IMG/VR virus record: IMGVR_UViG_3300009175_000009
Span: 1-48,523 of that record
Reading direction: 5' to 3' (one strand)
Length of the DNA: 48,523 nt
Source of the DNA: a virus
Taxonomy: Duplodnaviria > Heunggongvirae > Uroviricota > Caudoviricetes
The notes below the pieces were generated by a model. The model did no database searches. It had not been told where the DNA came from and worked only from the letters and a program-made list of their open reading frames with translations. Position numbers and translations under genes: made by a program. Positions within the stretch are counted from its first letter, which is position 1. Every line of letters begins with the position of its first letter. Positions 13,396 through 27,733 of this stretch are shown one piece after another.

Positions 13396-13457
13396 GACAG
13401 CCTCTGTAATAGGTTGTAGTGGTGAACGGTCAAGGTATAGGCACCTTGACCGTTCTT

Positions 13458-14087: not shown

Positions 14088-14156
14088 GCCCCGTAGAAAA
14101 CACGAACCCGCCGAGGCAGGCACCCCGCCCGCCGAGGCCCAACCAAGGAAAAAGCC

Positions 14157-14852
14157 ATGCCCGCTACGATTAGAAGCTTTCTGGACACGCAGTTACACGC
14201 CGGCTGCAACATCATCAGCCTTGCCTACATCAGCAAGAAGACAGCAGGCGACGGCCTTTTGCAAAAGAGCCGAGCGACCGGCCAGCCGACCTCCGAGGTT
14301 TATCTGATGGGGGTGCAGCGTGAGGCCCAAGGTCGGTTTTTCCTGGGGTTCGACTACGCCAAGAACGTCGACGCCCAGCGGGAACGCGAGGGCAAAGCCG
14401 GCGACCCCTACGTGGTCGAGGGCCTGTGGTGCGACAAGGACGGCAACGCCAAGGGCCGCCACTTTGCCGACTACCCCAGCTTGGTTTTCCACGTTGACCG
14501 GCCCGCCAGCGAGTACCTTTACACGCGACCGTACCAGGACAAACAGGGGAGGATTCAGAAAGAGTACAGCGTGTGGCGGGATATCGCTACCCAGCGGATC
14601 CTGACCGCCGAAGAGGTGGCCGACCTCAAGGCCAACTACCTGCCCAAGGTCAGCCCGAGCAAGAAGCAGGATTTGGCGAAGGAAATCCCGGTGCGGGTTT
14701 TCAAACTGGAAACCATGTTCGCCCTCAAGGTCAAGGGCAAGGGCGAGTGGGTTTACCTTACCGAAGACCGCCCGAGCCGAGCCGAGCGAGTTGTGGCCCG
14801 CCGCCGCATGCAAACCGCCAACGCCGAACTTCGGCCCACCTGGGAAATCTGA
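14157..14852 (+). CDS. Hypothetical protein (ends LRPTWEI)
   Basis: 231 aa, AAGGA RBS, first gene after the sigma54-like motif at 14067. Confidence 0.65.
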   Translation: MPATIRSFLDTQLHAGCNIISLAYISKKTAGDGLLQKSRATGQPTSEVYLMGVQREAQGRFFLGFDYAKNVDAQREREGKAGDPYVVEGLWCDKDGNAKGRHFADYPSLVFHVDRPASEYLYTRPYQDKQGRIQKEYSVWRDIATQRILTAEEVADLKANYLPKVSPSKKQDLAKEIPVRVFKLETMFALKVKGKGEWVYLTEDRPSRAERVVARRRMQTANAELRPTWEI

Positions 14853-14854
14853 GG

Positions 14855-14881
14855 TTGACCTCGGGCTAGACAAACTATAAT
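14855..14881 (+). promoter_or_regulatory. Sigma70-like promoter of the EndoVII HEG
   Basis: TTGACC-N15-TATAAT (short spacer). Confidence 0.55.
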
Positions 14882-14885
14882 ACTA

Positions 14886-14972
14886 GTGTTGTCAGCACAT
14901 ACCCCAAACACCCCCGTCCCGCAGAGGCTCTGCATCTTCTAGATGCTGTGCTGACAACACCTGCGGGGCGGG
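14886..14972 (+). ncRNA. Pseudoknot leader RNA, copy 1
   Basis: P1 GTGTTGTCAGCACA (14886-99) pairs with 14947-60; P2 CCCGTCCCGCAG (14913-24) pairs with CTGCGGGGCGGG (14961-72). Confidence 0.7.
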
Positions 14973-14989
14973 CTTTTAATTCAACGATC

Positions 14990-15664
14990 ATGCCGTACAA
15001 AAACCCTGCCGACAAAAAGGCGAATGACGCACGACGTGCGGCGGCTATCCTTGCTGACCCTGTTCAACGGGAGAGACGCAATGCACGGCATTGTAAGAAC
15101 TATGCCCGCCTCAAAAAGAACTCATCTTGGTGTAGGAAACGAGCCGAGGATTCGCACCGCCGCAACCAAACCAAATACTACGCTGATGTGGCGGCATCCC
15201 GCAAGCTCGTGCGGGAGCGGTTATCGCAAATGCGGGTGGCCAACACAGGCAATATCAACGGAAAAACCAAGGCGTATCGCCAACAGCACCGGAAGCAAAT
15301 CAACGCCAGTACCAAGGCATGGCTGGTGGCCCATCCTGAACGGGCCAAAGCGTACCGGCGGGCGGCACATCTTCAGGCAAAATATAAGATGACCCACAAA
15401 ACATACGAGGAGATGTTTAACGCTCAGGGTGGCGTATGTGCTGCGTGCGGTCAGCCTGAAACAAGTAAACGGCTAGGAGTGATTCGGCACATGCACGTCG
15501 ATCACGACCACGCCACCGGCAAGGTGCGAGCCCTATTGTGCCACAGATGTAATTCCGCCCTTGGACTTCTCAAGGACGACCGAACACTGGTGGCTAACCT
15601 GCTACTCTACATCAGCAAGTACCAACCCGTCACCCGCCGAAGAATTCAAACTGTTGGCACATGA
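14990..15664 (+). CDS. Endonuclease VII-family (His-Me finger) homing endonuclease
   Basis: QGGVCAACG...HVDHDHATGKVRALLCHRCNSALGLLKD; basic helical N-terminus. Confidence 0.85.
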   Translation: MPYKNPADKKANDARRAAAILADPVQRERRNARHCKNYARLKKNSSWCRKRAEDSHRRNQTKYYADVAASRKLVRERLSQMRVANTGNINGKTKAYRQQHRKQINASTKAWLVAHPERAKAYRRAAHLQAKYKMTHKTYEEMFNAQGGVCAACGQPETSKRLGVIRHMHVDHDHATGKVRALLCHRCNSALGLLKDDRTLVANLLLYISKYQPVTRRRIQTVGT

Positions 15665-15676
15665 CGTGCATGATAC
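15656..15676 (+). promoter_or_regulatory. Sigma54-type motif overlapping an HEG stop codon
   Basis: GGCACATGACGTGCATGATAC. Confidence 0.7.
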
Positions 15677-15698
15677 GACCAGCGAAAGGAACTGAATT

Positions 15699-15893
15699 AT
15701 GAGAATTAGAAGACCAGCAGTCGAATGCCCAAACTGGTGCCCGTACAAGACCTATACGTGGACGACCAAACAACTGGCCGCGTGGTATCTCAAGTATGGC
15801 GAATGGTGCCAGTACGATGGCCGTGTGTGGGTGCCCGTGACGAAACGTCTCGGTGGCGGAGTAGTGAGTGTCAGATTCAAGGAGAAGGTGTAG
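15699..15893 (+). CDS. Hypothetical protein
   Basis: 64 aa, GAAGGA RBS, downstream of a sigma54-like motif. Confidence 0.55.
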   Translation: MRIRRPAVECPNWCPYKTYTWTTKQLAAWYLKYGEWCQYDGRVWVPVTKRLGGGVVSVRFKEKV

Positions 15894-15896
15894 GCT

Positions 15897-16151
15897 ATGA
15901 ACGTCGGTGACATATTCTACAACACGCAGGACGAGCCATCACTGCCCGGCGTTCCGCCGTTCAAGAAGGGATTCTACAAGGTCATCAGCATCCGCGACAG
16001 CCTGCTCCTGCGACACCTGAAACCGCACCAGCGGCGGATGTACGAAATCCGCCGTTGCACCAAGAACGGTGGCAAACTGATGAAGTACCACAACGACTGG
16101 TGCTGTACGAAGCTCGACGCGTGGTTGGCGTCCGGTCGGCTACAGCAATAA
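15897..16151 (+). CDS. Hypothetical protein
   Basis: 84 aa, tightly packed. Confidence 0.55.
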   Translation: MNVGDIFYNTQDEPSLPGVPPFKKGFYKVISIRDSLLLRHLKPHQRRMYEIRRCTKNGGKLMKYHNDWCCTKLDAWLASGRLQQ

Positions 16152-16159
16152 ATACGAAC

Positions 16160-16180
16160 GGCACGCCGGTTGCATGATAA
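16160..16180 (+). promoter_or_regulatory. Sigma54-type motif
   Basis: GGCACGCCGGTTGCATGATAA. Confidence 0.78.
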
Positions 16181-16309
16181 GACCGGCATACGAAACAACA
16201 GCCGCTCAATAAGCGGAATGCGGGTGCAGGTCTCGTAGACCTGCACCCTGCGGATACAAGAGGCGACGGTCGGCGGGCGGTGAAGTCCTCACCGCCTGGG
16301 CCACCACGG

Positions 16310-16337
16310 TTGACGTAGCGAGTAGATCAGCTAGACT
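16310..16337 (+). promoter_or_regulatory. Sigma70-like promoter of the HNH-AP2 HEG
   Basis: TTGACG-N16-TAGACT. Confidence 0.6.
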
Positions 16338-16344
16338 AACGTTA

Positions 16345-16437
16345 GTCGGTTGACCTTGCACTTGGCCGACGAGCTTTGATTCATTTACGCCCAACCCGTC
16401 TCACGTCACTCGCAAGGTCAAACGTGGGGCGGGTTGG
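16345..16437 (+). ncRNA. Pseudoknot leader RNA, copy 2
   Basis: P1 TTGACCTTGC (16350-59) with GCAAGGTCAA (16412-21); P2 16391-406 with 16422-37. Confidence 0.75.
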
Positions 16438-16455
16438 TGTCGTTAGGATCATATC

Positions 16456-16977
16456 ATGCCGGAAAGACGCAGAATAACGAGCGTGCGGTTCATACCGCTG
16501 ACGCAGGGCCGGTTTGCTATCGTGGATGCAGCCGATTACGAATGGCTGACGCGATTCAGCAAGTGGTGCTACAACGGAACCAAAGGCTATGCCGTCAGCA
16601 GCCTAGTTCGCCGGTTGTCTCGGGCCGGCGAATCGTATCAGATGCACCAGATCATTATGCGGGCTCCTCCCGGCGTAAGCCCAGACCATAAGAATGGCAA
16701 CAAGCTCGATAACCGCCGCAGCAATCTGCGGCTGGCCAACGGTACGCAGAATATGGCCAACCGCGATCTACAGAGCAACAACACGACCGGCTACAAAGGT
16801 GTAGTTAGGCATCGTGGTAAATTCCGAGCCCGCATCGGCGATGGACTTCGCAAGGGTGGTCGGCATCTTGGCATATTCTTGACCGTTGAAGAAGCAGCTT
16901 TGGCCTACAACACGGCGGCTGTTGAAATGTACGGTGAGTTCGCTTGTTTGAATTCGGTTGGCACGCGATTCGCATGA
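16456..16977 (+). CDS. HNH-AP2 homing endonuclease
   Basis: IPLTQGRFAIVD...DHKNGNKLDNRRSNLRLA; C-terminal AP2-like YKGV...FRARI...HLGIF...EEAALAYN. Confidence 0.88.
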   Translation: MPERRRITSVRFIPLTQGRFAIVDAADYEWLTRFSKWCYNGTKGYAVSSLVRRLSRAGESYQMHQIIMRAPPGVSPDHKNGNKLDNRRSNLRLANGTQNMANRDLQSNNTTGYKGVVRHRGKFRARIGDGLRKGGRHLGIFLTVEEAALAYNTAAVEMYGEFACLNSVGTRFA

Positions 16978-16980
16978 TAC
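16960..16980 (+). promoter_or_regulatory. Sigma54-type motif overlapping an HEG stop codon
   Basis: GGCACGCGATTCGCATGATAC. Confidence 0.75.
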
Positions 16981-17103
16981 TTCCATCGTAAACGGTCAGC
17001 GTAAATCCTGCGGGCTCCCAAGCCTTCGGGCAGCAAAACAAGGTGGGCATACCCCACCGAATACGCTGACCGCCGCTCAAACCAGCAGCGAAGGAATGCT
17101 AGA

Positions 17104-17322
17104 ATGTCTGAACGAGAAAAAAACGCCTGGAACGAGATCGACGAACAAGCCGCCCGCGAGGGTTCGGCCCGCCGCCGCGAGTTTCACCACCACTTCACCG
17201 CCGCCGCGACGTCGCGGGGCATTGGTGTCCACAGTACTTCAATGGGCAAGAGCCGAGGCATGGCCAGCCGACCCGCTTCGGGCCGATTCGACCGCCTCGT
17301 CCAGCACACCCGAGCAGCCTGA
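17104..17322 (+). CDS. Hypothetical protein
   Basis: 72 aa, GAAGGA RBS. Confidence 0.45.
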   Translation: MSEREKNAWNEIDEQAAREGSARRREFHHHFTAAATSRGIGVHSTSMGKSRGMASRPASGRFDRLVQHTRAA

Positions 17323-17340
17323 ACCGAAAGGTAACCAACC

Positions 17341-17529
17341 ATGAAGAACCGACCCACAGTAATGACCGACAGCGGCGTATCCGTTGTTCTGGTTCCCTTG
17401 CCACACGGCCAGTTCGCGGTGAACCGCGTCTACAAGGGCAAGACCGACCGTATCGGCTACGTCGCCGTGCAGGGAAACAGCCCGTGCTGGCCCTGCGGCG
17501 AGACCTTGTGCCGCCCACGTCGCCGGTAG
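17341..17529 (+). CDS. Hypothetical protein
   Basis: 62 aa in the operon. Confidence 0.5.
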   Translation: MKNRPTVMTDSGVSVVLVPLPHGQFAVNRVYKGKTDRIGYVAVQGNSPCWPCGETLCRPRRR

Positions 17530-17629
17530 CCCGCCTCGCTGTCGAGGCAATGTCGCAGCGATTCAGCGAGCCACCTCCCCGCGAGTTGCACGGCCCCGAA
17601 AACGGCCCCGAAGATGATGGAGACGCACC

Positions 17630-17893
17630 GTGCTAACCGTCGAACTCAAACACGAACGAGCGAAGGGCCGAACCGCCGAGGTCGCCACCCTCCGCGAAGC
17701 ATCCGAGACCGTTCGCCTATACATCAGCTACTTTAGCCTTGGGAACGGCAACTGGCAGGGCGGGCTGGTACGCCAGAACGGCAAGCGGAAGTACATGATC
17801 TCTTACAATGGTCGTGTCTGGAAGTATGAGCCGAAAGGCTGGACGAACACGACGCCTGAAATCACTGGTGAAGAACTGGACAAACCATTATGA
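17630..17893 (+). CDS. Hypothetical protein
   Basis: 87 aa, GGAG RBS, GTG start. Confidence 0.55.
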   Translation: MLTVELKHERAKGRTAEVATLREASETVRLYISYFSLGNGNWQGGLVRQNGKRKYMISYNGRVWKYEPKGWTNTTPEITGEELDKPL

Positions 17894-18243
17894 CCACAGC
17901 GACGCAACCGACCCTCGACGCCCGCGGCTGGTTTGACTTCGTCAGCGAGATTCACGAGCAGGTGAAAAAGGCGGGCCGCATCTACACGACCGGCCAGATC
18001 GCTCGCCGCATCCGGGTCAAAGTCCTGAAGCAGTACCGCGATCAGGGCGACGACGAGATGACCGCCGAACGCGTGCGGCATGGCCTCGACCGTGTTGGCC
18101 CAGGCGGGCTTACCGGAATGATACTGCGATATGTAGAGGGCACCCTGGCCGTGCGAACGCGGGCGGGCGTGATCGATCAGCGGAACTACCACAACCGCGA
18201 CGCATTCCTTGCGGCCATCCGAAACCTGAATCCAAGGGCATAG
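17890..18243 (+). CDS. Hypothetical protein
   Basis: ATGA overlap with the upstream gene. Confidence 0.6.
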   Translation: MTTATQPTLDARGWFDFVSEIHEQVKKAGRIYTTGQIARRIRVKVLKQYRDQGDDEMTAERVRHGLDRVGPGGLTGMILRYVEGTLAVRTRAGVIDQRNYHNRDAFLAAIRNLNPRA

Positions 18244-18245
18244 TC

Positions 18246-18401
18246 ATGGACGAAGATATCGACGAACTCGATTACGAGTGCCCGCCGGTGTGCAGCGAGT
18301 GTGGCGAGAATCTTTGCGATTCGTGCGGCTGCTGCGGCAACCCGCACTGCGAAGCGTGCTGCTGCCCGCTTGTGGAACGCGAGGACGACGCGGGAGAATG
18401 A
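18246..18401 (+). CDS. Cys-rich metallothionein-like small protein (51 aa)
   Basis: MDEDIDELDYECPPVCSECGENLCDSCGCCGNPHCEACCCPLVEREDDAGE; 11 Cys; starts 2 nt after the upstream stop. Confidence 0.55.
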   Translation: MDEDIDELDYECPPVCSECGENLCDSCGCCGNPHCEACCCPLVEREDDAGE

Positions 18402-18449
18402 GCCATGAACGAATATGAAAAGTAATTCGCCTCGTTATCCCTAGCGGAG

Positions 18450-18803
18450 GTGATGGAGCTTCGGAAGATCAAGACGAAGCTGACCGATCAGTACCTGCAT
18501 GAGGAACTGCCCACGGTGCAGGGCTGGTGTAACAAGTGCGATGCCTGCGGGGCGGTCGGATACCAAGACCCGCCCGTGATGTACACCGATCCCGAGTCTG
18601 GATCAGTGATCACGTTGCAGGGCCGTATTTACAACAAGACGATGTTTCGCGCGATCGGCGAGATTTTATGCGAGAAGTGTTTCGTCCGGGAGTATTACAA
18701 CGGACCGACCAACGACGTGCCCAAGCGGGGCAACCCACACCTGACGACACCGCACTCGCAGTGGAGTTACGACGGTGGTAGATTTGGAAGCGGAGAATGG
18801 TGA
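18450..18803 (+). CDS. Hypothetical zinc-ribbon protein
   Basis: CNKCDAC and CEKC motifs; GGAGG RBS. Confidence 0.55.
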   Translation: MMELRKIKTKLTDQYLHEELPTVQGWCNKCDACGAVGYQDPPVMYTDPESGSVITLQGRIYNKTMFRAIGEILCEKCFVREYYNGPTNDVPKRGNPHLTTPHSQWSYDGGRFGSGEW

Positions 18804-18804
18804 T

Positions 18805-19137
18805 ATGAACCACGAAGAATTCCTCAAGTTTCTTGGCAGCGAGGCCCGACCCAAGTGTGGCCGGTGCTGGTGGCGGGAGGGCCGCAAGTGCTACAACGAG
18901 AACCTCGGTGCAGTACCGGGCGAGGGTCAGGACATCACCGCTGAACTGTGGGCTACCTGCTCTGCCACACCCGCGTACCAGAACAGTCGGGCGACCCTGG
19001 CTCAGGCCCTGCCGAACATCTTGCTGGCCGTCGCGGCACAGACGCAGCCCGCTGAAAAGGTTGTCCAGTGCTGCGAAGCTGTCGAGTCGGCATACGATTC
19101 GCATGATACCGCTGGTCAGAAAGGAACTGAATCATGA
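18805..19137 (+). CDS. Hypothetical protein
   Basis: CGRC motif; packed operon. Confidence 0.55.
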   Translation: MNHEEFLKFLGSEARPKCGRCWWREGRKCYNENLGAVPGEGQDITAELWATCSATPAYQNSRATLAQALPNILLAVAAQTQPAEKVVQCCEAVESAYDSHDTAGQKGTES

Positions 19138-19592
19138 CTATCGGAACCCCAAGTGTCTGCGAGTGGATTCGCAGCCTGCCGAATACTAGCAACGTTCGCC
19201 CGTGCCGAGTCACCATCAAGGGCCAAACCTGGGAGGGTGCTTATTACGAGGAGGAACGCGAGTGGCAGCAGGGCATGGACGGCGTGCAGCGAGGTGAACA
19301 CAAGGCGGGCGATAAGTACGTCATCCGCCGCATCTACCTGCTCGGCGACCGGCCTGTGTTCAACCGTGAACGTGTCTGCTTCCCGTCGTATGAGGGCCTG
19401 GACTGGTACGTTTCGGGCTACTGCGTCACCTTCAAGCCCGAGCAGAAAAAGTATCATCCCTTCGGCAAGAGCTTTCAGATCATGCCGTGGGAGATCGAGG
19501 GCAAGCCCGACTGCAAGATCGACAGTCACGAACTGCACCCGTACCTGCGGGTGCCGATGACGGTCGAGTTCATCGAGGAGACCGCGTCATGA
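19134..19592 (+). CDS. Hypothetical protein
   Basis: ATGA overlaps at both ends. Confidence 0.6.
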   Translation: MTIGTPSVCEWIRSLPNTSNVRPCRVTIKGQTWEGAYYEEEREWQQGMDGVQRGEHKAGDKYVIRRIYLLGDRPVFNRERVCFPSYEGLDWYVSGYCVTFKPEQKKYHPFGKSFQIMPWEIEGKPDCKIDSHELHPYLRVPMTVEFIEETAS

Positions 19593-19927
19593 CATGCCCC
19601 AACAAGCACCCCGAAGGCCCGGTTTGTCCGACCTGCGGCGGATCCTGTGCTCCGTCCGGAGTCGACAGAGGATCGTGGGTTCACTTCCCTGTGACGGCCA
19701 GCGGTCGCGTGATCGATAGACTGGCCATCGAAGGTCATGGTGCGATTCAGGTGGACGAGTCTCCCGACCGCGAGCCGCCCATCATCGTCCTCGCCGGCCC
19801 GATCAAGTTCTGGTGGCAGGAAGGTCAGTGGGATAGCCTGCGGCATCAGGAATACGTGCAGTGGCGGGACGCAGTGCGGGTGGCCTTGGTGAAGGCCGGA
19901 TTCGCCGTCTATTCGCCACAGGTCTAG
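19589..19927 (+). CDS. Nucleoside 2-deoxyribosyltransferase (NDT)-like protein, N-terminal piece
   Basis: IIVLAGPIK...WRDAVRVALVKAGFAVYSP matches the first half of the NDT-like/DUF4406 fold (IYLAGP...G..vyxP). Confidence 0.6.
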   Translation: MTCPNKHPEGPVCPTCGGSCAPSGVDRGSWVHFPVTASGRVIDRLAIEGHGAIQVDESPDREPPIIVLAGPIKFWWQEGQWDSLRHQEYVQWRDAVRVALVKAGFAVYSPQV

Positions 19928-19953
19928 ACATTATGCCCTGTATAGCCTATACT
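19925..19953 (+). promoter_or_regulatory. Sigma70-like promoter of the inserted HNH gene
   Basis: TAGACA-N17-TATACT; the TAG of the -35 box is the stop codon of the NDT N-piece. Confidence 0.65.
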
Positions 19954-19972
19954 ATGTTTGGAGGGCGTAAGT

Positions 19973-20416
19973 ATGCTATGCAGAGTATGCAACGAGCGAG
20001 AGGTTCCTGAAGGCCACAAACGGAACAGGAATTACATTTGTAGCCAGTGCCACTACGGACGATACAAGGAAAAGGCACAAATCCTAAATCGAAGGAACGG
20101 TAAACGTTACCGCAAGGAGTTGCGGGAACGTATGTTTGATGCTTACGGCAGGGAGTGTGTTTACTGCCACAGCACGACGAATTTGCAGTTCGATCATACT
20201 AACGGTGACGGTTGCCGCAAAACGCGGGGATATGATACGCGGCAGTGGTTTCTGATGCTTATTGCCGCAGGATTCCCGCCTAGCTGCCAAGTGGTGTGCG
20301 GGCAGTGTAACGTAGCAAAACAGAATATGACCGATGCTCAGTTCCGAGCCTGGATCAAGATGGTATATCACGCTATTCACGGCGTGGAACGGCGACGCAT
20401 ACGGAGTACTACATGA
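19973..20416 (+). CDS. HNH endonuclease inserted in the NDT-like gene
   Basis: CVYCH...LQFDHTNGDG...QVVCGQCNVAK; N-terminal CxxC...CxxC. Confidence 0.8.
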   Translation: MLCRVCNEREVPEGHKRNRNYICSQCHYGRYKEKAQILNRRNGKRYRKELRERMFDAYGRECVYCHSTTNLQFDHTNGDGCRKTRGYDTRQWFLMLIAAGFPPSCQVVCGQCNVAKQNMTDAQFRAWIKMVYHAIHGVERRRIRSTT

Positions 20417-20655
20417 TCCTTCAACACCGAGCGATCCAGGGCCGCTGGAACGAAGGGCTTCAGCGGATTAACGATGCCGCGATCATGAACGCCGACGTCA
20501 TCGTGGTGCTGACGCCGCGGGACGTGCCCGCCGAAGGAACAGCACGCGAGGTCAAATTGGCGAAGCGGTTCAACATACCAGTCATTACCGCCCCACCAGG
20601 CAGCGATAGAAATCTCAGCACGCTCGTTGAAAGCTGCCTTGAGGAGGCTCGATGA
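20413..20655 (+). CDS. NDT-like protein, C-terminal piece
   Basis: INDAAIMNADVIVVL...AEGTAREVKLAKRFNIPVI matches the second half of the NDT fold (D...i..aD.vv...GT..E...A...kPv). Confidence 0.6.
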   Translation: MILQHRAIQGRWNEGLQRINDAAIMNADVIVVLTPRDVPAEGTAREVKLAKRFNIPVITAPPGSDRNLSTLVESCLEEAR

Positions 20656-21560
20656 ACTTCCACGAGTTCCCACTGTTCTACGTTTCGGCCAAACGCCTGG
20701 GCATGGTTCCCAGAGGCGTCTCATCTGCGGTGTTCTACGCGAACCACTTTCGTGATATGCATTGCATCGGAACATCCGCCGAGGCTGAAGTGCTGGGCGT
20801 TCACCTGTTCATGGAAGGCTGGTGGGCGGAGCATAACCGGCCCTTCTATAACGTGTGGCCTAAGATCATCCCGATGCTGACCCGCCTCGACCTGTCACAG
20901 ATCACGGGCAAGATGCTGAAGTCTCCCAAGCAGGTCATGTGTCTGCGGTTCCCGCAGGAAGGAAACCCGTTGACCCGCGACGGCGTGACTCTGCGGTCGA
21001 TGCTGGTTGGTCCGGTCAGCACAACCGCAGGTCACCCGGCCTATTTCACGGCACAGGACTACGGAGAAACGATAAGCGGCCTGCCCGTGGTATCAACGAA
21101 CTGGGTGCCGCTGCGGCCCGACCAGCCGCTGCTGGAGACCTTCGGCGGTTGCAAGAAGCGGGAATCCGCGATGGACGGCATCCAGATTCCCGAGGAACTA
21201 ATGCTAGATGTGTGGCGTCTGGTGTTCACCTTGTCCCTACTGGATGATGATCCCGAATTGATCGAACGCATCGTCCTCGCCGCCGACCGGAACGACTATG
21301 ATCGCAGCGGTGACCAGAAGTACGTTGCCAAGGCGGAACGTCGCGGCGTGTTGGGTTGGGATATCGGCAAACGTGTCGAGGTGATGCCGCACTATCGCCG
21401 CCCGCACCTGGGCCTGCGGTGGACGGGCGAGGGCCGTACCGTGGCCAAGATCGTGCCGATCAAGGGAGCAATCATTCACCGCGAGGCTGTTCTTCAACAG
21501 CCGACCGGCGAGGAAGGGCCGGTGGACGTGTCTAATGATCAACAAGGAGACAAGCCATGA
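20652..21560 (+). CDS. Hypothetical phage protein
   Basis: 302 aa; C-terminal PHYRRPH...WTGEGR motif. Confidence 0.65.
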   Translation: MNFHEFPLFYVSAKRLGMVPRGVSSAVFYANHFRDMHCIGTSAEAEVLGVHLFMEGWWAEHNRPFYNVWPKIIPMLTRLDLSQITGKMLKSPKQVMCLRFPQEGNPLTRDGVTLRSMLVGPVSTTAGHPAYFTAQDYGETISGLPVVSTNWVPLRPDQPLLETFGGCKKRESAMDGIQIPEELMLDVWRLVFTLSLLDDDPELIERIVLAADRNDYDRSGDQKYVAKAERRGVLGWDIGKRVEVMPHYRRPHLGLRWTGEGRTVAKIVPIKGAIIHREAVLQQPTGEEGPVDVSNDQQGDKP

Positions 21561-21994
21561 ACGACAGCGACGTTAAGTATGTAGCTGTACCCCGCACCAA
21601 TCCTGAGATGTACCAGGAAATTCGTGCGAAGTACTATTCCCGCAAATGGTGGATGGCTATTGGATTTGATGGCGAGGACGCGATGTCGGTCATGGAGGCT
21701 ATCGGTGCAGCCGTCGATCTTACCGGAGACGTCGATGGATCCGTGCTGTATGAGTGCCCCGTGGGGATTTACGGAGATGACGGTGTACCAGAGAAAGATA
21801 TATTCTGCATCCTGTTCATTCACAAACGGGTTGACTGGAATGCAATATTCCGAGCGTGTCGTCAAAATCGCCTGGATGCGTTTCCAGAGCAGCCGCCCCA
21901 GCAGGACGTTTTGATTCTTAGCACGAGTCTGCATAAAACAGCCATGACTACCTACGATAATGTTCTGAGCTGTTACTCGCATCTGGACAACTAG
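21557..21994 (+). CDS. Hypothetical protein
   Basis: AAGGAG RBS, ATGA overlap. Confidence 0.6.
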   Translation: MNDSDVKYVAVPRTNPEMYQEIRAKYYSRKWWMAIGFDGEDAMSVMEAIGAAVDLTGDVDGSVLYECPVGIYGDDGVPEKDIFCILFIHKRVDWNAIFRACRQNRLDAFPEQPPQQDVLILSTSLHKTAMTTYDNVLSCYSHLDN

Positions 21995-22027
21995 CGTGAA
22001 ACGAAACGAGTAGACCAGATTGAGGAT

Positions 22028-22219
22028 ATGATGCGATACATAGTAATTGAGCACAACAGCCGTGACCCGCAGAACCCGAAGGTGAAGGTGTTCTCAGGAT
22101 CGAGTGCGAAGAGTAACGCACTGTTATTCGATGACGTATCATCGAACACATGCCAGATTTACTTTGTGAAGGGCGACCTGACCCTCCAACCCGTAGAACG
22201 AAACGGAAAGTCATCTTGA
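22028..22219 (+). CDS. Hypothetical protein
   Basis: 63 aa, GAGGA RBS. Confidence 0.5.
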   Translation: MMRYIVIEHNSRDPQNPKVKVFSGSSAKSNALLFDDVSSNTCQIYFVKGDLTLQPVERNGKSS

Positions 22220-22231
22220 TCGGAAGTACCT

Positions 22232-22534
22232 ATGAAATCCAAAGACTGGGCTAATCCGCTGCGGAAACACCTGAAGGCCAAAGGCTGGGCGAGGCAGGAC
22301 AGGGGCGGTGTCGAGCTATGGCGGGATCCGATTCGCCGCGACACGCTGGGCCACTCCTTCTTTATGACGTTCGCCGGGGCGGTCAAAGTGCAGAAGAGCC
22401 GCGATGACGGCAGCGACAAGATCACCTGCCAGGCCAACATCGTCGATCACGATTTATTCGGCATTCGCAAGTGCAGTCGCAAGCCAAAGGCGAACGGGTA
22501 CTGCCACCAGCACAGGAAGCAAGCACAATCATGA
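22232..22534 (+). CDS. Hypothetical protein
   Basis: C-terminal CQA...KCSRK...YCHQH zinc-binding-like motif. Confidence 0.55.
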   Translation: MKSKDWANPLRKHLKAKGWARQDRGGVELWRDPIRRDTLGHSFFMTFAGAVKVQKSRDDGSDKITCQANIVDHDLFGIRKCSRKPKANGYCHQHRKQAQS

Positions 22535-22908
22535 AGATCACCATCGTAGACCAGATCGTGCGGCCCAAGGTTGAGGGCGGATGTGAGTGGGGCAATTTTC
22601 GCAAGGTGCTGGTCAGGCTCGTGCGGGGCGGAAAGCCCGTGAAGGAACTGTGGTGGATGCCGGGCTTCACGGGTTGGGCCGGCAGGGGATGTACCGACTA
22701 CTATCATTCTCAGCTTATGACCGATGCTGAAGACGGCAGCGGACGCCCGCTGGGCGGGGCCAACAGTGAGTGGAAAACACTGCACGAGGGCGGCAGGCTC
22801 AGCGTGAAACTTATTGCAAAATACGCGAAGCAAATCGACGCGTTCTTCGGTGATTCGGTGTCTGGTCTTATCAGGAATACCAGAAAAACCATGATCATCG
22901 AGGACTAG
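22531..22908 (+). CDS. Hypothetical protein
   Basis: ATGA overlap. Confidence 0.55.
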   Translation: MKITIVDQIVRPKVEGGCEWGNFRKVLVRLVRGGKPVKELWWMPGFTGWAGRGCTDYYHSQLMTDAEDGSGRPLGGANSEWKTLHEGGRLSVKLIAKYAKQIDAFFGDSVSGLIRNTRKTMIIED

Positions 22909-22912
22909 TCAA

Positions 22913-23707
22913 TTGCCCCACATGCGAGTCTTCATCCGAGTTAGGCTGAGCGAGGCCGGTCGCCGTGCCGACGTGACCGCCGGCGGCAATGGGGCAGCCG
23001 AGTTTGATATCGAGGTGTTCCGGGCAACGACCGCACCGGATGATTGGGCCGCCGTCGTCGATCAGGCCGACCTCGACCGCGACGAAGCTGTCCTCGATAT
23101 GCGAGGCGGTATCACACGCGACGGCATCACTGTACCCATCGCGGACTTCTCGTGGGTTCCCGACGTCAGGCAGGCCCTAGTTGTCTATCGGGACGCTGTA
23201 CGAGAATGGGTACGAATGCGATGGGAGGAGGACACTCGCCGAGCAAATCTGGGCCTGCGGCCTGGTGATTTTGATTTCCCGATGTGCCGCGACGTGCTAC
23301 TGCGGGTGCCGGTCTATGAGAAGACGCCCGGCAGCAGGAACTGGATGGCGTCTGTGCGGCTTGCCCCGAACGCACCGGGAGGCCTGGATCGAGCGTGGAT
23401 GATGCGGGTGCGCGACGGCGACGACGGTTACTACAGGCTGCGACCGTTGCAAATAGGTGACGTGGTTGAGTTCGGGGCTGACCTGCTGACCGACCGCAGT
23501 AAGAGGTTCAAAAACCGCTGGTACGGATACGTGGTGCGACGTACCGATGATATGCTCGTCTTGCACAAGACCAACACCGCCGAGGTGGCATTCCGCGAGG
23601 GGGCGGTTTACGCAGCCAGCGTTGCCCCGCCGCCCGTCGTGCCCAAGCCCCGCCGACGCCGAATTGGTGGCCATATCGAGGAAGAACGCCCGACGTGGGA
23701 GCTGTGA
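22913..23707 (+). CDS. Hypothetical protein (ends ERPTWEL)
   Basis: 264 aa, last gene of the + run before a convergent endonuclease gene. Confidence 0.6.
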   Translation: MPHMRVFIRVRLSEAGRRADVTAGGNGAAEFDIEVFRATTAPDDWAAVVDQADLDRDEAVLDMRGGITRDGITVPIADFSWVPDVRQALVVYRDAVREWVRMRWEEDTRRANLGLRPGDFDFPMCRDVLLRVPVYEKTPGSRNWMASVRLAPNAPGGLDRAWMMRVRDGDDGYYRLRPLQIGDVVEFGADLLTDRSKRFKNRWYGYVVRRTDDMLVLHKTNTAEVAFREGAVYAASVAPPPVVPKPRRRRIGGHIEEERPTWEL

Positions 23708-23820
23708 GGCGACTTTATGCCGCGTGCGGGCCACTGTAGGCCAGACGTGGCGAGGTGTTCCCGACTGCGGCTACCGGGCCACCCGAGCCGCCTGCCGCAC
23801 AGCGGGCCTATACAGGCGGC

Positions 23821-24339
23821 TTACACGGGCGGAGCTTCCACAGTCTGATTCCGAAATAGCACCTCGTCTTCGGGCGACCTGAAGGCATAGAGTATCATGT
23901 CTCCGGTGACAAGGGCTAAAACGTCACACTTACCGTTCTGGAACTGGCGGTTTTTGCAGTGCTGAACAAGACTCGTGGTCTTGTACATTTTGCCAGTCGA
24001 TACCTGTACGGTGAGCAGGCGGTCGCCGATACCCACAACGAGATCATGCCCACACCCCGCCGAGATCGCACGGTAAACGTCCCACCCACGTCGAAGCATA
24101 TCGACAGAAACGATTAGCTCATGGGCCGCACCCGTATCGCTGTTGCACTTGCAGCTTGACGTTGCGGATGTGGTTCGGAGGAATCGTGTGCCAGAACAAT
24201 CCCAGATATGATCGGCAGTAGCGATGCGTCGCCGCACTGATCGCCTAGCCGCGTTTGATGCACAAGATCGAGAGCAGAACATCTGGTTGGCGTTGCCGCT
24301 GTACCGCCCTCCGCAGAAATCACAGTAGCCTAACATCAT
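23821..24339 (-). CDS. PD-(D/E)XK family free-standing endonuclease with N-terminal zinc finger
   Basis: GAAHELIV...RGWDVY...HDLVV...VQVST resembles the group I intron-type PD-(D/E)XK core; CDFC...FCSRSC finger; GGAG RBS. Confidence 0.7.
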   Translation of the reverse strand: MMLGYCDFCGGRYSGNANQMFCSRSCASNAARRSVRRRIATADHIWDCSGTRFLRTTSATSSCKCNSDTGAAHELIVSVDMLRRGWDVYRAISAGCGHDLVVGIGDRLLTVQVSTGKMYKTTSLVQHCKNRQFQNGKCDVLALVTGDMILYAFRSPEDEVLFRNQTVEAPPV

Positions 24340-24347
24340 TAGACTCC

Positions 24348-24425
24348 ACCCGCCCGCCGTGCATGGCCATACCACTGGAGACGCACAGCGGGACGGGTAG
24401 GTTTGGTTTGTTAGGTGGTATGGCC
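24348..24425 (-). ncRNA. Pseudoknot leader RNA, copy 3
   Basis: On the minus strand: P1 GGCCATACCAC/GTGGTATGGCC; P2 ACCCGTCCCGCTGTGC/GCACGGCGGGCGGGT. Confidence 0.7.
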
Positions 24426-24436
24426 GAACAGCAGTC

Positions 24437-24465
24437 ATAATAGCACAAACCAGCCCTGTGACCAA
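24437..24465 (-). promoter_or_regulatory. Sigma70-like promoter of the PD-(D/E)XK gene
   Basis: TTGGTC-N17-TATTAT (weak -35). Confidence 0.5.
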
Positions 24466-24529
24466 CCTGGCCCTTCGGCAGTCGCCAGTGACCAACCTCG
24501 GTGACCAAGTTCCGGTATTTGATTCAATT

Positions 24530-24550
24530 GGCACAGCGTTCGCATGATAT
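24530..24550 (+). promoter_or_regulatory. Sigma54-type motif
   Basis: GGCACAGCGTTCGCATGATAT. Confidence 0.75.
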
Positions 24551-24605
24551 GCCTCCTAGAAATACAACCTCGCGGGCCAACGCCCGCCCAAGCAAGGAAA
24601 CGAAC

Positions 24606-24911
24606 ATGACCGCCACAACGATTCAACTGTCCGCCCTGGCTGACGTGATCCAAGTTTACAGCGGCAGGGCGAACGCCTGCTGCTGCGGATGCAGCGGCAA
24701 GCATACCGTAGCCTCGGCCCACCGAGCCGAAGCGGCCCGACGCTGCGGATACGCGGTGGCTGACGAGGACGTCAGCGACCGCACGGTCAAGCTGATCTAC
24801 AACAAGGTCGCAAAAGCCGCCGAGGCCGGTGTCGAGTTCATTTGCACGGGCGAGTCGAACTGCTGGTCGGTCGATGTCGGCAGCCGCACGTATTGCCTGT
24901 ACATAGCATAA
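24606..24911 (+). CDS. Hypothetical protein
   Basis: AAGGA RBS, follows the sigma54-like motif at 24530; contains CCCGC. Confidence 0.6.
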   Translation: MTATTIQLSALADVIQVYSGRANACCCGCSGKHTVASAHRAEAARRCGYAVADEDVSDRTVKLIYNKVAKAAEAGVEFICTGESNCWSVDVGSRTYCLYIA

Positions 24912-24924
24912 AGCAGATTCGGCT

Positions 24925-24945
24925 GGCACGCCATTCGCATGATAT
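24925..24945 (+). promoter_or_regulatory. Sigma54-type motif
   Basis: GGCACGCCATTCGCATGATAT. Confidence 0.75.
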
Positions 24946-25182
24946 GCCAGCCGATAGCACCCTGCCGGTAAGCCCGCAAAGAATCGTCGCGGGCCTTGGT
25001 GCAACCCACCGACCGCCGTTAAGCCAGCACCTAGCAGGACTCGTCGCTGGCCGGTCGGAAACCGCTGAACCCACGGCGGTAAGCCCTAGCGAGGCTTTGT
25101 GGGGTCTTTTCTTCGGACGGGTTAGGTGGGCGAGGGCTCGTAGCTCCTCGCCCACCAACCTCCTAAGCATAGCAGGTGAACC

Positions 25183-25296
25183 ATGAACGGTAAACGAGCC
25201 ATCAAAAAGAGCAGCAGGAACAACCCAGTGAAGAAGTCGCTGCGGTTGGTGAAGGCCAAGGTTCGCAAGCTGCATCTCAAAGAGCATAAGAACTAA
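25183..25296 (+). CDS. Small basic protein (37 aa)
   Basis: MNGKRAIKKSSRNNPVKKSLRLVKAKVRKLHLKEHKN; AGGTG RBS. Confidence 0.45.
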   Translation: MNGKRAIKKSSRNNPVKKSLRLVKAKVRKLHLKEHKN

Positions 25297-25307
25297 GGAA
25301 CCTGAAC

Positions 25308-25571
25308 GTGATACAGGCACTGAAAGATCTGGTCGCCGCCGACCAAACCGAGGTCGCGGCCATCAAACGGCAGTTGCGTCAGCACCGCAAGGAGCGATAC
25401 GAGCAACTGGCTCTGACTCTGATGGCCGAGTTCAACCTGCCCCGCGACCGTGTGGATTGCCACATCGCAGAGGGCCGACTGCGTAATACCGACTTCGTTG
25501 AAGTTTGCCGTATTGCCGAGCGTCAGAGCATCGCTTCGCGGAGACAACTTGATCAAGGAGTTCGACGATGA
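25308..25571 (+). CDS. Hypothetical protein
   Basis: AAGGA RBS. Confidence 0.55.
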   Translation: MIQALKDLVAADQTEVAAIKRQLRQHRKERYEQLALTLMAEFNLPRDRVDCHIAEGRLRNTDFVEVCRIAERQSIASRRQLDQGVRR

Positions 25572-25924
25572 ACGCAAACGAACCAACAATTCTCAGCAGC
25601 GAAGAAGCTGGCGTGAGGATCACCCTCACGCCCGACAAAAAGGAATGGCTGGAGCAGGGCCTGAAGATCGAGTGCCTGAAGGTGGACTGCGGACGCGAGT
25701 TTGAAGTGGGCCACATCCTCGATCCCTATGGCCCCGCGCCAGCCCTGCGTCTCGACGCTCCGCTGGGCGTCCGCACCGTAGCCCTAATCCTGAAGGCTTT
25801 GGAACTGCGACTTGTATGTATTCCTCCTGGGCCAGCCAATGGGCCTACAACGGGCTACCAGGCTGAAACAGGGGCCGAACGGTCGCATCGGGCCGCGACC
25901 CAATGGCCAGATTTCACCCAATGA
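25568..25924 (+). CDS. Hypothetical protein
   Basis: AAGGAG RBS, overlapping start/stop. Confidence 0.55.
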   Translation: MNANEPTILSSEEAGVRITLTPDKKEWLEQGLKIECLKVDCGREFEVGHILDPYGPAPALRLDAPLGVRTVALILKALELRLVCIPPGPANGPTTGYQAETGAERSHRAATQWPDFTQ

Positions 25925-25952
25925 GACGTAGACCGTCGAATTCGGATTTATT

Positions 25953-25973
25953 GGCACGGCATTCGCATGATAT
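25953..25973 (+). promoter_or_regulatory. Sigma54-type motif
   Basis: GGCACGGCATTCGCATGATAT. Confidence 0.75.
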
Positions 25974-26282
25974 GCTTACCGTTCCTGCGGCCCTTGCCTG
26001 AGTGAGGTGAAGGCCCGACAAGCGAGGTGCGAAGTACAAGCAATACCGGCTCCGTCCCCCGACGCCAAGATCGAGGGCACGAGGCCGCAGGAGCGAACGG
26101 TCCTTAGAACGCGGGGTAAAACCTGCGGGTCAGGTCTTACGGGAGTAAGACCGCAGCGGTTCGATTCCGCAGGGATCACCTCAGAAACCGAACTGGCTCG
26201 AAAATCATGGCTGGGCAACACTCGCGCGTGAGCCCACGGGTTCCTGCGGCCCCAAGAGCAGTTCGGTGGATTCACAGCGAAT

Positions 26283-26303
26283 GGCACAGCCTTCGCATGA
26301 TAG
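26283..26303 (+). promoter_or_regulatory. Sigma54-type motif
   Basis: GGCACAGCCTTCGCATGATAG. Confidence 0.72.
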
Positions 26304-26360
26304 GGTAGGCAGAAAGCAAACACGACCGAGTCGGGTGACGGCCCAAAGTGCGGCGTCCCG

Positions 26361-26388
26361 TTGACGCCGCAGGTAAACCGACTAGAAT
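26361..26388 (+). promoter_or_regulatory. Sigma70-like promoter of HEG 26507
   Basis: TTGACG-N16-TAGAAT. Confidence 0.65.
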
Positions 26389-26395
26389 AAGGGCA

Positions 26396-26486
26396 GTCGG
26401 TTGACCTCACAACTTGGCCGACAAACGAATCATGACTAACCAACCCGTCCTGCGTGACTTGTGAGGTCAAACGTGGGGCGGGTTGG
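26396..26486 (+). ncRNA. Pseudoknot leader RNA, copy 4
   Basis: P1 TTGACCTCACAA (26401-12) with TTGTGAGGTCAA (26459-70); P2 26440-55 with 26471-86. Confidence 0.75.
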
Positions 26487-26506
26487 CGTCATTTCGGAGT
26501 TATATT

Positions 26507-27004
26507 ATGTCGCGTAATCCAGTTGGTACGGCGTGGCGGGACATGAAGTACCGCTGTTTTAATTCAAGCCACCAAGCCTATTTTAACTATGGTGGTCGTG
26601 GAATTACGGTCTGCTTGGGTTTACAAGATTTTACTAAGTTCACCCAGGTTCTAGGCCCACGACCAGAAGGCTACACTCTTGACCGCGAAGATAACGAGGG
26701 TAGCTACACCTGTGGTGAATGCGACCAGTGCCGGGAGAATGAGTGGGTGAAGAACGTAAGGTGGGCTACGCGAAGTGATCAGCAGCTTAACCGAAGGACA
26801 ACGAATCATACCGTACTGTACAGGGGTGTAAGTCTCCATCTTGGAAAGTACTACTTAGCCCAAATTCGCTGTAACGGGTTACTACAATACGTGGGGTGTT
26901 TTCCTACGGCAAGGGAAGCCGCCATCGCGTACAACCAGGCGGCTACAGCCATTCGAGGGGCGAACGCTAAGATAAACCGAATTCGGATTCAGACCGGCAC
27001 GTGA
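26507..27004 (+). CDS. HNH-like/AP2 homing endonuclease
   Basis: AWRDMKYRC...YGGRGITVC...GPRPEGYTLDREDNEGSY...NVRWAT; AP2-like YRGV...AQIR...VGCFPTAREAAIAYN. Confidence 0.85.
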   Translation: MSRNPVGTAWRDMKYRCFNSSHQAYFNYGGRGITVCLGLQDFTKFTQVLGPRPEGYTLDREDNEGSYTCGECDQCRENEWVKNVRWATRSDQQLNRRTTNHTVLYRGVSLHLGKYYLAQIRCNGLLQYVGCFPTAREAAIAYNQAATAIRGANAKINRIRIQTGT

Positions 27005-27016
27005 TTCGCATGTTAA
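26996..27016 (+). promoter_or_regulatory. Sigma54-type motif overlapping an HEG stop codon
   Basis: GGCACGTGATTCGCATGTTAA. Confidence 0.7.
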
Positions 27017-27106
27017 TTCTTCTGAAATAGGTAGGCTAACCGATAGTAATAAACGCTTACGGTTCACCCGCCTCGGTTCTATAAACCACAAACCCCTGAA
27101 ACGACC

Positions 27107-27733
27107 ATGCTAGACAAAACATTCATCCTCGGCGGCAAGGCCATCTTCACCCTTGAGGTTTCGCCGGCCTTCCAAGCAGCCAACGCGAGTGCCAAGCCGC
27201 ACTATACCTACAAGGTCACGCACAAGGCCCCGACCCCGCAGTACCCAAACGAGAAGTGGTTCGTGGCCCTGCTGACCGGCCCTGATAACACCAACGACTA
27301 TCAGTACCAGGGGATGCTCGACGCCGCGACCGGAATTTTCATTCGCGGCAAGAAGGCCCTGCCCGAGACCTGCCACCCCCTGCGGCTGTTCGCCCGAACC
27401 ATGAAGGCGATTTGGGAAGGCCGCAGCGAGCAGATCGAAGCGGCTGGTTTCAGCCTGCACCACGAAGGACGGTGCGGCTGCTGCGGTCGCCGCCTGACCA
27501 CCCCGGCCAGCATCGAGCTGGGCATCGGGCCTGAGTGTGCCGCGAAGCGAGGCTTGGGCCTTGCGGTCGCCGCCGTACACGCGGCTGACGAGGATATCGA
27601 CCTTACGGCAGAGCAGCGGGGCGTGCTGAACGCTCTGGGTGTAGAACCTACAGCCGCTGCCCAAAAAGCCCTTGTGCGGGCGGGCATTCCGACCTACAAC
27701 ACGCCCAACGTACAGCTTTCCCTTTTGAGCTAA
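27107..27733 (+). CDS. DUF6011-like zinc-ribbon protein
   Basis: CGCCGRRLTTPASIELGIGPECA. Confidence 0.65.
   Translation: MLDKTFILGGKAIFTLEVSPAFQAANASAKPHYTYKVTHKAPTPQYPNEKWFVALLTGPDNTNDYQYQGMLDAATGIFIRGKKALPETCHPLRLFARTMKAIWEGRSEQIEAAGFSLHHEGRCGCCGRRLTTPASIELGIGPECAAKRGLGLAVAAVHAADEDIDLTAEQRGVLNALGVEPTAAAQKALVRAGIPTYNTPNVQLSLLS

Follow-up and report, generated by a model that had tools for sequence, protein, structure and literature searches.

Introduction

Between positions 14,886 and 26,486 of a phage DNA stretch of 48,523 nucleotides (nt), called the window here, four small nuclease genes are found, each of them preceded by a sigma70-like promoter and by a leader of about 90 nt that is predicted to fold into interleaved helices. 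The window constitutes the first 48.5 kb of the 112,523-bp (112.5-kb; bp, base pairs) IMG/VR virus record IMGVR_UViG_3300009175_000009. The sources of the phage are lake and freshwater metagenomes, and a near-identical ENA contig of 192 kb was found for the record. Its helicase is less than 30% identical to that of any INPHARED phage, so the phage has no close cultured relative. The leaders of the window are called c1 to c4, and two further leaders on the ENA contig L156 are called d1 and d2; all leader counts given below rest on these six copies from two related lake-phage lineages.

To our knowledge, homing endonucleases are the commonest selfish genes in large phages, and we know of a few T-even examples only, with simple hairpins, in which the restraint of such genes has been worked out. 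The leader discussed here is modular, is clearly selected, is common to nucleases of different folds and is exchanged together with its promoter. An initial annotation, made from the sequence alone, described it as an H-type pseudoknot in front of four unrelated endonuclease genes. This article discusses the evidence for the fold, its mobility and its probable function.

Architecture of the Nuclease Leaders

In the sense of each gene the order of the elements is promoter, P1a, L1, P2a, L2, P1b, P2b and nuclease start codon, P1a and P1b being the two strands of helix P1 and P2a and P2b those of helix P2 (Table 1). All four leaders are located where they had been annotated, and our own structure scan returned the same four. 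The lengths given initially for P1 (10-14 bp) and P2 (12-16 bp) and the CCCGTC...GGGCGGG core are borne out as well, and the 3' strand of P1, said to run into that of P2 directly or within 2 nt, does so with a gap of 0 nt in every copy. Likewise, each fold lies shortly after a -10 box (5-12 nt) and ends shortly before an ATG (9-20 nt). L1 measures 13-31 nt, L2 (between P2a and P1b) 3-22 nt and the loops of P2 15-36 nt. All copies have a single sequence in common, CCCGUC/GGGCGGG, which forms the base of P2, and the invariant core consists of 13 bases.

Table 1. Coordinates of the leaders and associated features (window positions unless L156 is named; aa, amino acids).
Feature	Position	Strand	Details
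c1 promoter, sigma70-like	14855-14881	+	TTGACC, 15-nt spacer, TATAAT 14876-14881
c1 leader	14886-14972	+	P1a 14886-14899; L1 13 nt (A/C-rich); P2a 14913-14924; P3 hairpin 14932-14946; P1b 14947-14960; P2b 14961-14972; P1 14 bp, P2 12 bp; P2b to start codon 17 nt
c1 nuclease	14990-15664	+	Endonuclease VII family, 224 aa; Endonuclease_7, 75 bits
c2 promoter, sigma70-like	16310-16337	+	TTGACG, 16-nt spacer, TAGACT
c2 leader	16345-16437	+	P0 16345-16353/16362-16370; P1a 16350-16359 (P0 loop and upper stem); P2a 16391-16406; P1b 16412-16421; P2b 16422-16437; P1 10 bp, P2 16 bp; P2b to start codon 18 nt
c2 nuclease	16456-16977	+	HNH_3 and weak AP2 match (AP2-like domain), 173 aa
c3 promoter, sigma70-like	24437-24465	-	TTGGTC, TG-extended TATTAT 24442-24437
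c3 leader	24349-24425	-	P1a 24425-24415; L1 17 nt (A/C-rich); P2a 24397-24381; P1b 24375-24365; P2b 24364-24349; P1 11 bp, P2 16 bp with one bulge; P2b to start codon 9 nt
c3 nuclease	23821-24339	-	PD-(D/E)XK_5-like, 172 aa; 22.1 bits, below the Pfam cut-off of 26.1 bits; also a PHROG without assigned function
c4 promoter, sigma70-like	26361-26388	+	TTGACG, 16-nt spacer, TAGAAT
c4 leader	26396-26486	+	P0 26396-26404/26414-26422; P1a 26401-26412; P2a 26440-26455; P1b 26459-26470; P2b 26471-26486; P1 12 bp, P2 16 bp; P2b to start codon 20 nt
c4 nuclease	26507-27004	+	HNH type by PHROGs only, AP2-like C-terminus, 165 aa
d1 leader	L156 10830-10915		counterpart of c1
d2 leader	L156 16882-16974		c2-type
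Sigma54-like motif	15640-15680, 16950-16990, 26985-27015		
Sigma54-like motif	12745-12790	-	
Sigma54-like motif	41008, 41570, 43501		

The downstream nucleases are indeed of different types (Endonuclease VII, HNH and PD-(D/E)XK-like), but to call them unrelated was an overstatement, as three of the four are HNH/beta-beta-alpha-metal enzymes and the c2 and c4 proteins have a C-terminal AP2-like domain in common (38% over 81 aa), with N-terminal parts that are unalignable.

The second lineage is represented by the ENA contigs L153 and L156, which come from another lake data set and were reached via one match in a protein collection. L156 is syntenic with the window from about 7,000 to 28,400 at a baseline DNA identity of 66-83%, and carries the two leaders d1 and d2. 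P1 of d1 is unchanged from c1, while d2 is 80% identical to the c2 leader and shares with it P1, L2 and the distal part of P2.

Evidence for a Selected RNA Fold

A structure scanner was run over both strands of the 112,523-bp record. It required P1 and P2 each to have 9 bp or more, with 0-3 nt separating the 3' strand of P1 from the 3' strand of P2 that follows it, and gave the four leaders and three marginal 9/9-bp matches. The pattern CCCGTC-N20-50-GGGGCGGG occurs three times against 0.02 expected, and a perfect Watson-Crick P1 of the observed length beside P2b arises in 0, 16, 1 and 2 per 100,000 shuffles for c1 to c4, respectively. The same shuffle test with G-U pairs permitted is weak for c2 (0.9%) and c3 (2.6%); the appropriate test is that with Watson-Crick pairs only. 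Because of the excess of the core pattern and the rarity of P1 in the shuffles, a chance origin of the fold is excluded. The covariance-model check proposed in the initial annotation gave a clear separation for P2: a P2-only model scores 48-50 bits on c1 to c4 and 16 bits on the next-best site. In nested folding, the leaders have z-scores of -2.7 to -5.0, P2 being the dominant hairpin and P1b lying within its loop.

The pairing itself is kept with great fidelity. All 71 P1 pairs of the six copies are Watson-Crick pairs, although the P1 sequences of c1, c3 and c2/c4 are unrelated to one another. P2 comprises 87 pairs in the six copies, namely 76 Watson-Crick pairs, nine G-U pairs and two mismatches, and all nine G-U pairs can pair only in the sense RNA, as the initial annotation had stated for the wobbles. 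In addition, the P2 model scores the sense strand of these copies at 37-50 bits and the antisense strand at 14-25 bits. Both mismatches fall at position 5 of P2, which is a Watson-Crick pair in none of the six copies: it is U-G or, in c3, a bulged U in the window, A-C in d1 and A-G in d2.

Compensatory change between c2 and c4 was claimed initially and is confirmed. In their alignment nine of about 70 stem columns differ, with pairing kept in every case, against 13 of 24 unpaired columns, so that by our own count the stems are about four times less changed than the loops; among the stem changes, P1 has two that are double-sided and P2 three that are one-sided and pass through G-U. When d2 is added, 98.7% of the cells are paired, against 31-46% with the partner strand slid, and two double-sided P1 changes and four one-sided P2 changes retain a standard pair. 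P0 of d2 shows a further compensatory change, from UA to CG. Moreover, the P3 hairpin inside L2, GCATCT/AGATGC in c1, is GCGTCT/AGACGC in d1, with compensatory replacement of an A-U pair by G-C, and position 5 of P2 changes from U-G to A-C. All four stem substitutions between these two copies thus fall into two pairs, for which we calculate a probability of about 8 in 10,000 if four random hits fell among 64 stem bases. The same U-to-A change at position 5 is borne by both d1 and d2. These patterns show that selection maintains the fold, and that it does so on the sense strand.

Geometry of the Fold

The leaders occur in two forms. In c1, d1 and c3 the free 5' end is P1a itself, and A and C predominate in L1. 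In c2, d2 and c4 there is a hairpin, P0, at the 5' end, whose lower five pairs are strong and whose upper four consist of three G-U pairs and one A-U pair; here P1a is formed by the upper stem and loop of P0, and P0 and P1 share four nucleotides. P1 of these three copies would be a loop-loop (kissing) contact of 10-12 bp between P0 and P2, made by displacing the weak top of P0.

Classical H-type pseudoknots, such as those of the T4 gene 32 leader and the rpsO/S15 operator, have a spacer-free junction between P2a and P1b. The present leader resembles them in having interleaved P1a, P2a, P1b and P2b strands in a 5' leader near the ribosome site, but 3-23 nt lie between P2a and P1b, where the classical form has 0-1 nt, and it is the two 3' strands that meet without a spacer, opposite to the classical arrangement. 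The helices are also long (10-16 bp each) for a fold with one connecting loop of 3-5 nt, and the contact in c2, c4 and d2 is made loop to loop between two hairpins. Of the H-type pseudoknot originally proposed, therefore, the interleaved strands stand and the classical geometry does not. Since the connection between P2a and P1b, merely 3-5 nt in c2, c3, c4 and d2, would need to bridge the 10-12 bp of P1, the coexistence of both helices is sterically doubtful; full P1 and full P2 would be strained together, and either their ends fray or the helices are alternative or sequential states.

Promoters and Ribosome-Binding Sites

A simple consensus scan calls ten sigma70-like sites in the region, including those of c2, c3, c4 and, in a shifted register, c1; this number is not clearly above that in shuffled sequences (6.3, standard deviation 2.7). 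In all six copies the fold starts at about -2 to +6 of the predicted transcription start, and the promoter lies upstream of P0 or P1a and of the entire fold.

The position of the ribosome-binding site (RBS) differs among the copies. In c2 the Shine-Dalgarno sequence AGGA (16445-16448) is paired within an extension of P2, and in c3 GGAG (24347-24344) is largely paired in such an extension; most bases of these two sites have an unpaired probability of 0.00-0.04. In c4 the Shine-Dalgarno sequence GGAG (26496-26499) is unpaired and directly adjoins the P2 extension, and in c1 no recognisable Shine-Dalgarno sequence is present. The RBS is masked in just two of the four copies; therefore simple RBS masking does not appear to be the conserved feature, and the conserved part is the fold itself. 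Its conserved features are a 5'-anchored P1, a stable P2 with a fixed core and a non-canonical position, the 0-nt junction and a short distance to the start codon. Pairing of P1a to the RBS was also considered and dropped, being inconsistent across the copies.

Portability of the Cassette

The homology between c2 and c4 amounts to 74% over 137 nt and extends from the -35 box to a few nucleotides past P2, stopping before the ribosome site. In d2 a c2-type leader stands before an open reading frame (ORF) that has 47% identity to the c4 nuclease and no relation to the c2 nuclease. Furthermore, the window and L156 are 95% identical over 940 nt, a block made up of the upstream gene, the promoter and the c1 leader; the identity of c1 and d1 collapses about 10 nt into the ORF, and the nucleases beyond are 47% identical.

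Empty sites are also found. In the ENA contig L152, the match to the window (99.9%) runs as far as 14875 and resumes at 16123, and the same joint is present in Logan contigs of two DNA runs. The part absent from this form (14876-16122) includes the -10 box, the leader, the Endonuclease VII gene and two small ORFs, and the -35-like TTGACC of c1 belongs to the recipient side, which fits its odd 15-nt spacer. L152 and contigs of two DNA runs are also without 16279-21449, a 5.2-kb stretch of about 15 small genes, which is headed by the c2 cassette. ENA contig L022 contains the c3 cassette and about 700 nt next to it, with an identical leader, one mismatch over about 1.2 kb and unrelated flanks; this copy, which includes the neighbouring plus-strand gene, is due either to another genomic context or to chimeric assembly. 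The flanks of L022 (1-1250 and 2629-3532) are unrelated to the phage, and one of them encodes a Peptidase_S46 fragment.

Because d2 joins a c2-type leader to a c4-type nuclease and a relative with an empty site is without the c1 cassette, the promoter and leader form a portable module that is exchanged between nuclease ORFs. The portable cassette of promoter, structured RNA and nuclease, as proposed in the initial annotation, is thus supported, the sharing between c2 and c4 included.

Distribution

The proposed search of phage and metagenome databases for further copies was successful in part: it gave the two copies of the second lineage, both before nucleases, but none from INPHARED, IMG/VR, JGI or GTDB. 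Megablast and blastn against INPHARED phages gave no further leader copy, and neither did two specific leader patterns in IMG/VR. A looser pattern in IMG/VR found the leader in 0 of at least 118 loci; its recurrent 42-nt match lay inside a conserved open frame and not in an RNA, the motif of this frame being one that we take to be RusA-like. Relatives of four phage proteins in IMG/VR led to no additional leaders, and the leader is absent from all 11 IMG/VR loci with homologues of the c2/c4 nucleases (31-46% identity). JGI metagenomes searched with two proteins gave no more copies, and an 18-mer search of GTDB genomes gave six chance matches, none of which is matched by the model. In a big protein collection close homologues of the c1, c3 and c4 nucleases were not found, and most contigs obtained from its matches are without the leader, with the exception of L153/L156. 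Within the phage population, contigs of four DNA runs show zero variation within the leaders, and the leaders are identical among strain contigs.

A search for a known family in Rfam, as had been advised, gave no match. With Rfam 15 at gathering thresholds only a tmRNA and one tRNA were found in the window, and when E values as high as 10 were admitted for 14000-27500, the one row obtained was mir-618 over c3, at chance level (21.7 bits against a gathering score of 96 bits).

Comparison with Known Systems

Stable leader hairpins hold down the T-even phage homing endonucleases I-TevI, I-TevII, I-TevIII, segB and Aeh1 mobE (PMC2988022), and in seg43(25) of Aeromonas phage 25 a stable hairpin lies just upstream of the RBS and leaves it uncovered (PMC2988022). 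The present leaders are similar in that a very stable RNA structure directly precedes a phage homing-endonuclease ORF; the fold covers the Shine-Dalgarno sequence in c2 and c3 and stops short of it in c1 and c4, as in seg43(25). However, their promoter is of the host type and lies upstream of the whole fold in all six copies, unlike the T4 arrangement, in which the promoter is inside the hairpin and its transcripts lack the 5' arm and are translatable. They also have two to three interleaved helices with a contact between the 5' end and a loop instead of one hairpin, and a sequence core that is conserved across different nuclease families. The initial statement that this is no simple T4-type RBS-sequestering hairpin holds as to the promoter outside the fold and the several helices; the Shine-Dalgarno sequence is paired in two of the four copies (c2 and c3).

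PeSL cassettes mediate modular shuffling in T4-like phages (PMC2839356, PMC4122927). Like them, the leaders are small repeated cassettes with a sigma70-like promoter and a G/C-rich stem-loop, and they lie at the borders of accessory genes, marking points of modular exchange. In contrast, the stem-loop of a PeSL is a terminator that precedes the promoter, whereas the structure of the leader is downstream of it and within the transcript; neither a pseudoknot or kissing contact nor covariation is described for PeSLs, and PeSLs flank ORFans generally, whereas the leader precedes nucleases. By analogy, the leader would work like the T-even hairpins, and it is exchanged like the PeSLs, yet it fails one defining feature of each. 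As the initial annotation had recognised, it is not a HEARO or omega RNA: there is no Rfam match and no IscB, TnpB or RuvC-type gene is adjacent, the neighbours being small Endonuclease VII, HNH and PD-(D/E)XK-like proteins of 165-224 aa, in place of the nucleases that accompany IscB/TnpB guide RNAs. In the literature, we found no description of a covarying multi-helix leader common to several nuclease families. The leader most likely sets the amount of nuclease produced, and would be a more elaborate form of a control known from phage T4.

Possible Functions of the Leader

The reading that we favour, with a probability of about 0.45, is that the leader acts in cis and limits or gates expression of the nuclease at translation initiation and through the fate of the message. 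Transcription from the host-type promoter would start at or within a few nucleotides of the first paired base. The G+C-rich and very stable P2 would then form, ending 9-20 nt ahead of the start codon and in some copies extending across the Shine-Dalgarno sequence, and P1a, at the extreme 5' end, would pair with the loop of P2 up to the 3' strand of P2 and so tie the 5' terminus into a compact fold. Such a fold would hinder binding of the 30S subunit beside a stable helix, so that the output of nuclease is kept low or gated, and it may also set the lifetime of the message. Both the direction of the effect (down-regulation) and the step (translation initiation) are what we infer.

Several points weigh against this reading. 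The transcription start sites are predictions, and RBS sequestration is absent in c1 and c4. With the promoter upstream of the whole fold, the cassette's own transcripts carry the inhibitory structure, unlike in T4, and pairing of the 5' terminus could even raise expression by stabilising the message. The 0-nt junction of P1b and P2b, together with 3-5 nt between P2a and P1b in c2, c3 and c4, means that P1 and P2 might be alternatives to each other. The phage has further nuclease genes that lack a P1/P2 leader, and the known copies number six, from two related lineages only.

Two other kinds of control on the RNA have to be considered, each of them unlikely to a similar degree. In one, a trans-acting factor common to all the cassettes would read the base of P2, use the leader as its operator or processing site and so control the cassettes jointly; it would be either an RNA-binding protein of phage or host or RNase III acting on the approximately 25 bp of P2 and its extension. 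It is in the base of P2 that the only sequence common to all copies is found, and the lack of a Watson-Crick pair at position 5 in all six copies is a hint of such a factor; the same U-to-A change in both copies of the second lineage would fit co-evolution with a lineage-specific factor, although it could also stem from short-patch gene conversion between the copies. No candidate factor was identified, and P2 of c1 and d1, 12 bp without extension, is short for RNase III. It is a doubtful idea that a dedicated factor reads the P2 base and the non-Watson-Crick position and unites all promoter-bearing nuclease cassettes of the phage in a "nuclease regulon" under one post-transcriptional switch; if it were true, the shared U-to-A change would mark co-evolution of RNA and factor in the second lineage. 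A transcription attenuator or insulator would instead terminate most transcripts at P2, after about 90 nt, with P1, which forms before P2b, modulating the closure of P2 and with P0 restraining P1a in the copies that have P0 (type B); it would be an attenuator of three helices that includes a pseudoknot. That P2 is G+C-rich, with CUUUU after it in c1 and U-rich stretches in the other copies, would suit this, as would a P0 that shares four nucleotides with P1 and is easily displaced, its top having three G-U pairs. The loops of P2, however, are 15-36 nt long, a U-tract follows P2 only in c1 and partly in d1, the U-tracts of c2, c3, c4 and d2 being poor, and a consensus scan calls just a 5-bp sub-hairpin of c1 terminator-like.

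A little less probable still is a pure 5' stabiliser, in which the paired 5' end from about +1 shields the mRNA from 5'-end-dependent decay and raises expression. 5'-Terminal stem-loops stabilise E. coli mRNAs, the fold begins about the predicted +1 in all six copies, and another nuclease-like gene of the phage (12745-13395) has a promoter followed by a 13-bp 5' hairpin. A simple hairpin would suffice for that purpose, though, which leaves the P2 core, the 0-nt junction and the fixed non-canonical pair unexplained, and c3 has 4-5 unpaired nucleotides at its 5' end. It is improbable that the element is a DNA-level recombination module with a functionless RNA fold, in which promoter and leader are mainly a patch of homology for swaps of nuclease ORFs. 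The exchange points do lie at the edges of the leaders, as in the shuffling by PeSLs cited above, but P1 always pairs despite the entirely different sequences of c1, c3 and c2/c4, one-sided changes in P2 preserve G-U pairs on one strand only, and the stems are conserved over the loops in c2 and c4 as counted above; recombination alone is disfavoured because homology-driven exchange needs neither covariation nor strand asymmetry. Finally, a role of the RNA as nuclease cofactor or guide similar to the omega RNA of IscB, which the initial annotation had entertained, or as a self-cleaving ribozyme, is very unlikely. All that speaks for it is that the RNA is physically linked to nuclease genes, that its fold is compact and conserved and that Rfam has no match; against it, the same RNA precedes HNH-type and PD-(D/E)XK-like enzymes that lack RNA-binding domains, and the leader is missing from at least five further nuclease genes of the phage, from homologues of the c2- and c4-type nucleases on other phage contigs and from one c1-type (Endonuclease VII) contig. 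An RNA of this length has, moreover, only its 13 invariant core bases to offer. It is because of the different nuclease folds, the leaderless nucleases of the phage and the ordinary 5' leader position that the cofactor role is rated so low. Group I introns and HDV-like (hepatitis delta virus-like) or other ribozymes were dropped, since there is no Rfam hit and no space for a catalytic core. An antisense target in trans was also considered: a 15-nt perfect match to the P1b/P2b junction of c1 at 28545-28559, in the repeat-containing 3' end of the gene 28009-28611, is probably due to chance (about 0.02 such matches are expected).

If the mode of action of the leader is established, it would explain how a nuclease cassette can enter a new genome with its expression control built in, and would add to the natural RNA regulators a compact leader that is sequence-programmable, in that P1 is free to vary while it pairs. 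For now this value is limited by the narrow distribution of the six copies.

Other Nuclease Genes and Neighbouring Features

The c1 gene is not uniform in the population. One run has a 1-nt deletion at 14999, just after the start codon, and in several strain contigs the gene call is 144 aa rather than 224 aa. These sequence differences suggest that in some of the population the Endonuclease VII gene may be undergoing decay.

A fifth, free-standing nuclease-like gene (12745-13395, minus strand, 216 aa; region 12745-13486) has the promoter TTGAAA-17-TAGAAT, and its leader is a plain 13-bp hairpin (13424-13455) from about +1, simpler than the P1/P2 fold. Beyond the window, the HNH gene at G000 64668-65141 (minus strand) has a sigma70-like -10 box inside a hairpin that pairs part of the Shine-Dalgarno sequence, which is the T4 promoter-in-hairpin arrangement with a host-type promoter. 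The nuclease gene 42905-43519 has a promoter and no structure, and other HNH-domain matches without the leader lie at 10754-11395 and at about 64.5 kb and 66.8 kb of G000.

The c1, c2, c4 and 12745-13395 nuclease ORFs overlap at their 3' ends with a phage-specific sigma54-like motif, TGGCAC-N7-GCATGATA, which often has GAATTCAAAC in front of it and lies before the next phage gene. In T4, downstream-gene promoters are likewise embedded in seg and mob genes, as in segG, segA and mobB (PMC2988022), and this embedding in the 3' end of the nuclease gene is a further likeness to the T-even systems. The C-terminal peptides RRRIQTVGT (c1), RRRIQTAGT (d1) and RRRIQNIGT (12745-13395 gene) are the translation of this DNA motif, so the Arg-rich C-terminal tag of the nucleases may, at least here, have arisen as a side effect of the promoter element.

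A tRNA and a full-length tmRNA gene (166.6 bits) lie at 29345-29875, behind a near-consensus sigma70-like promoter at about 29170-29198. Another leader, behind a sigma54-like promoter at about 16160 (window 16156-16262; L152 1300-1430), has two hairpins whose stems differ between the window and L152 yet pair in both, for example GCCGCT/AGCGG in the former and GCCGAC/GTCGG in the latter, and from this comparison it looks like a second structured leader with covariation.

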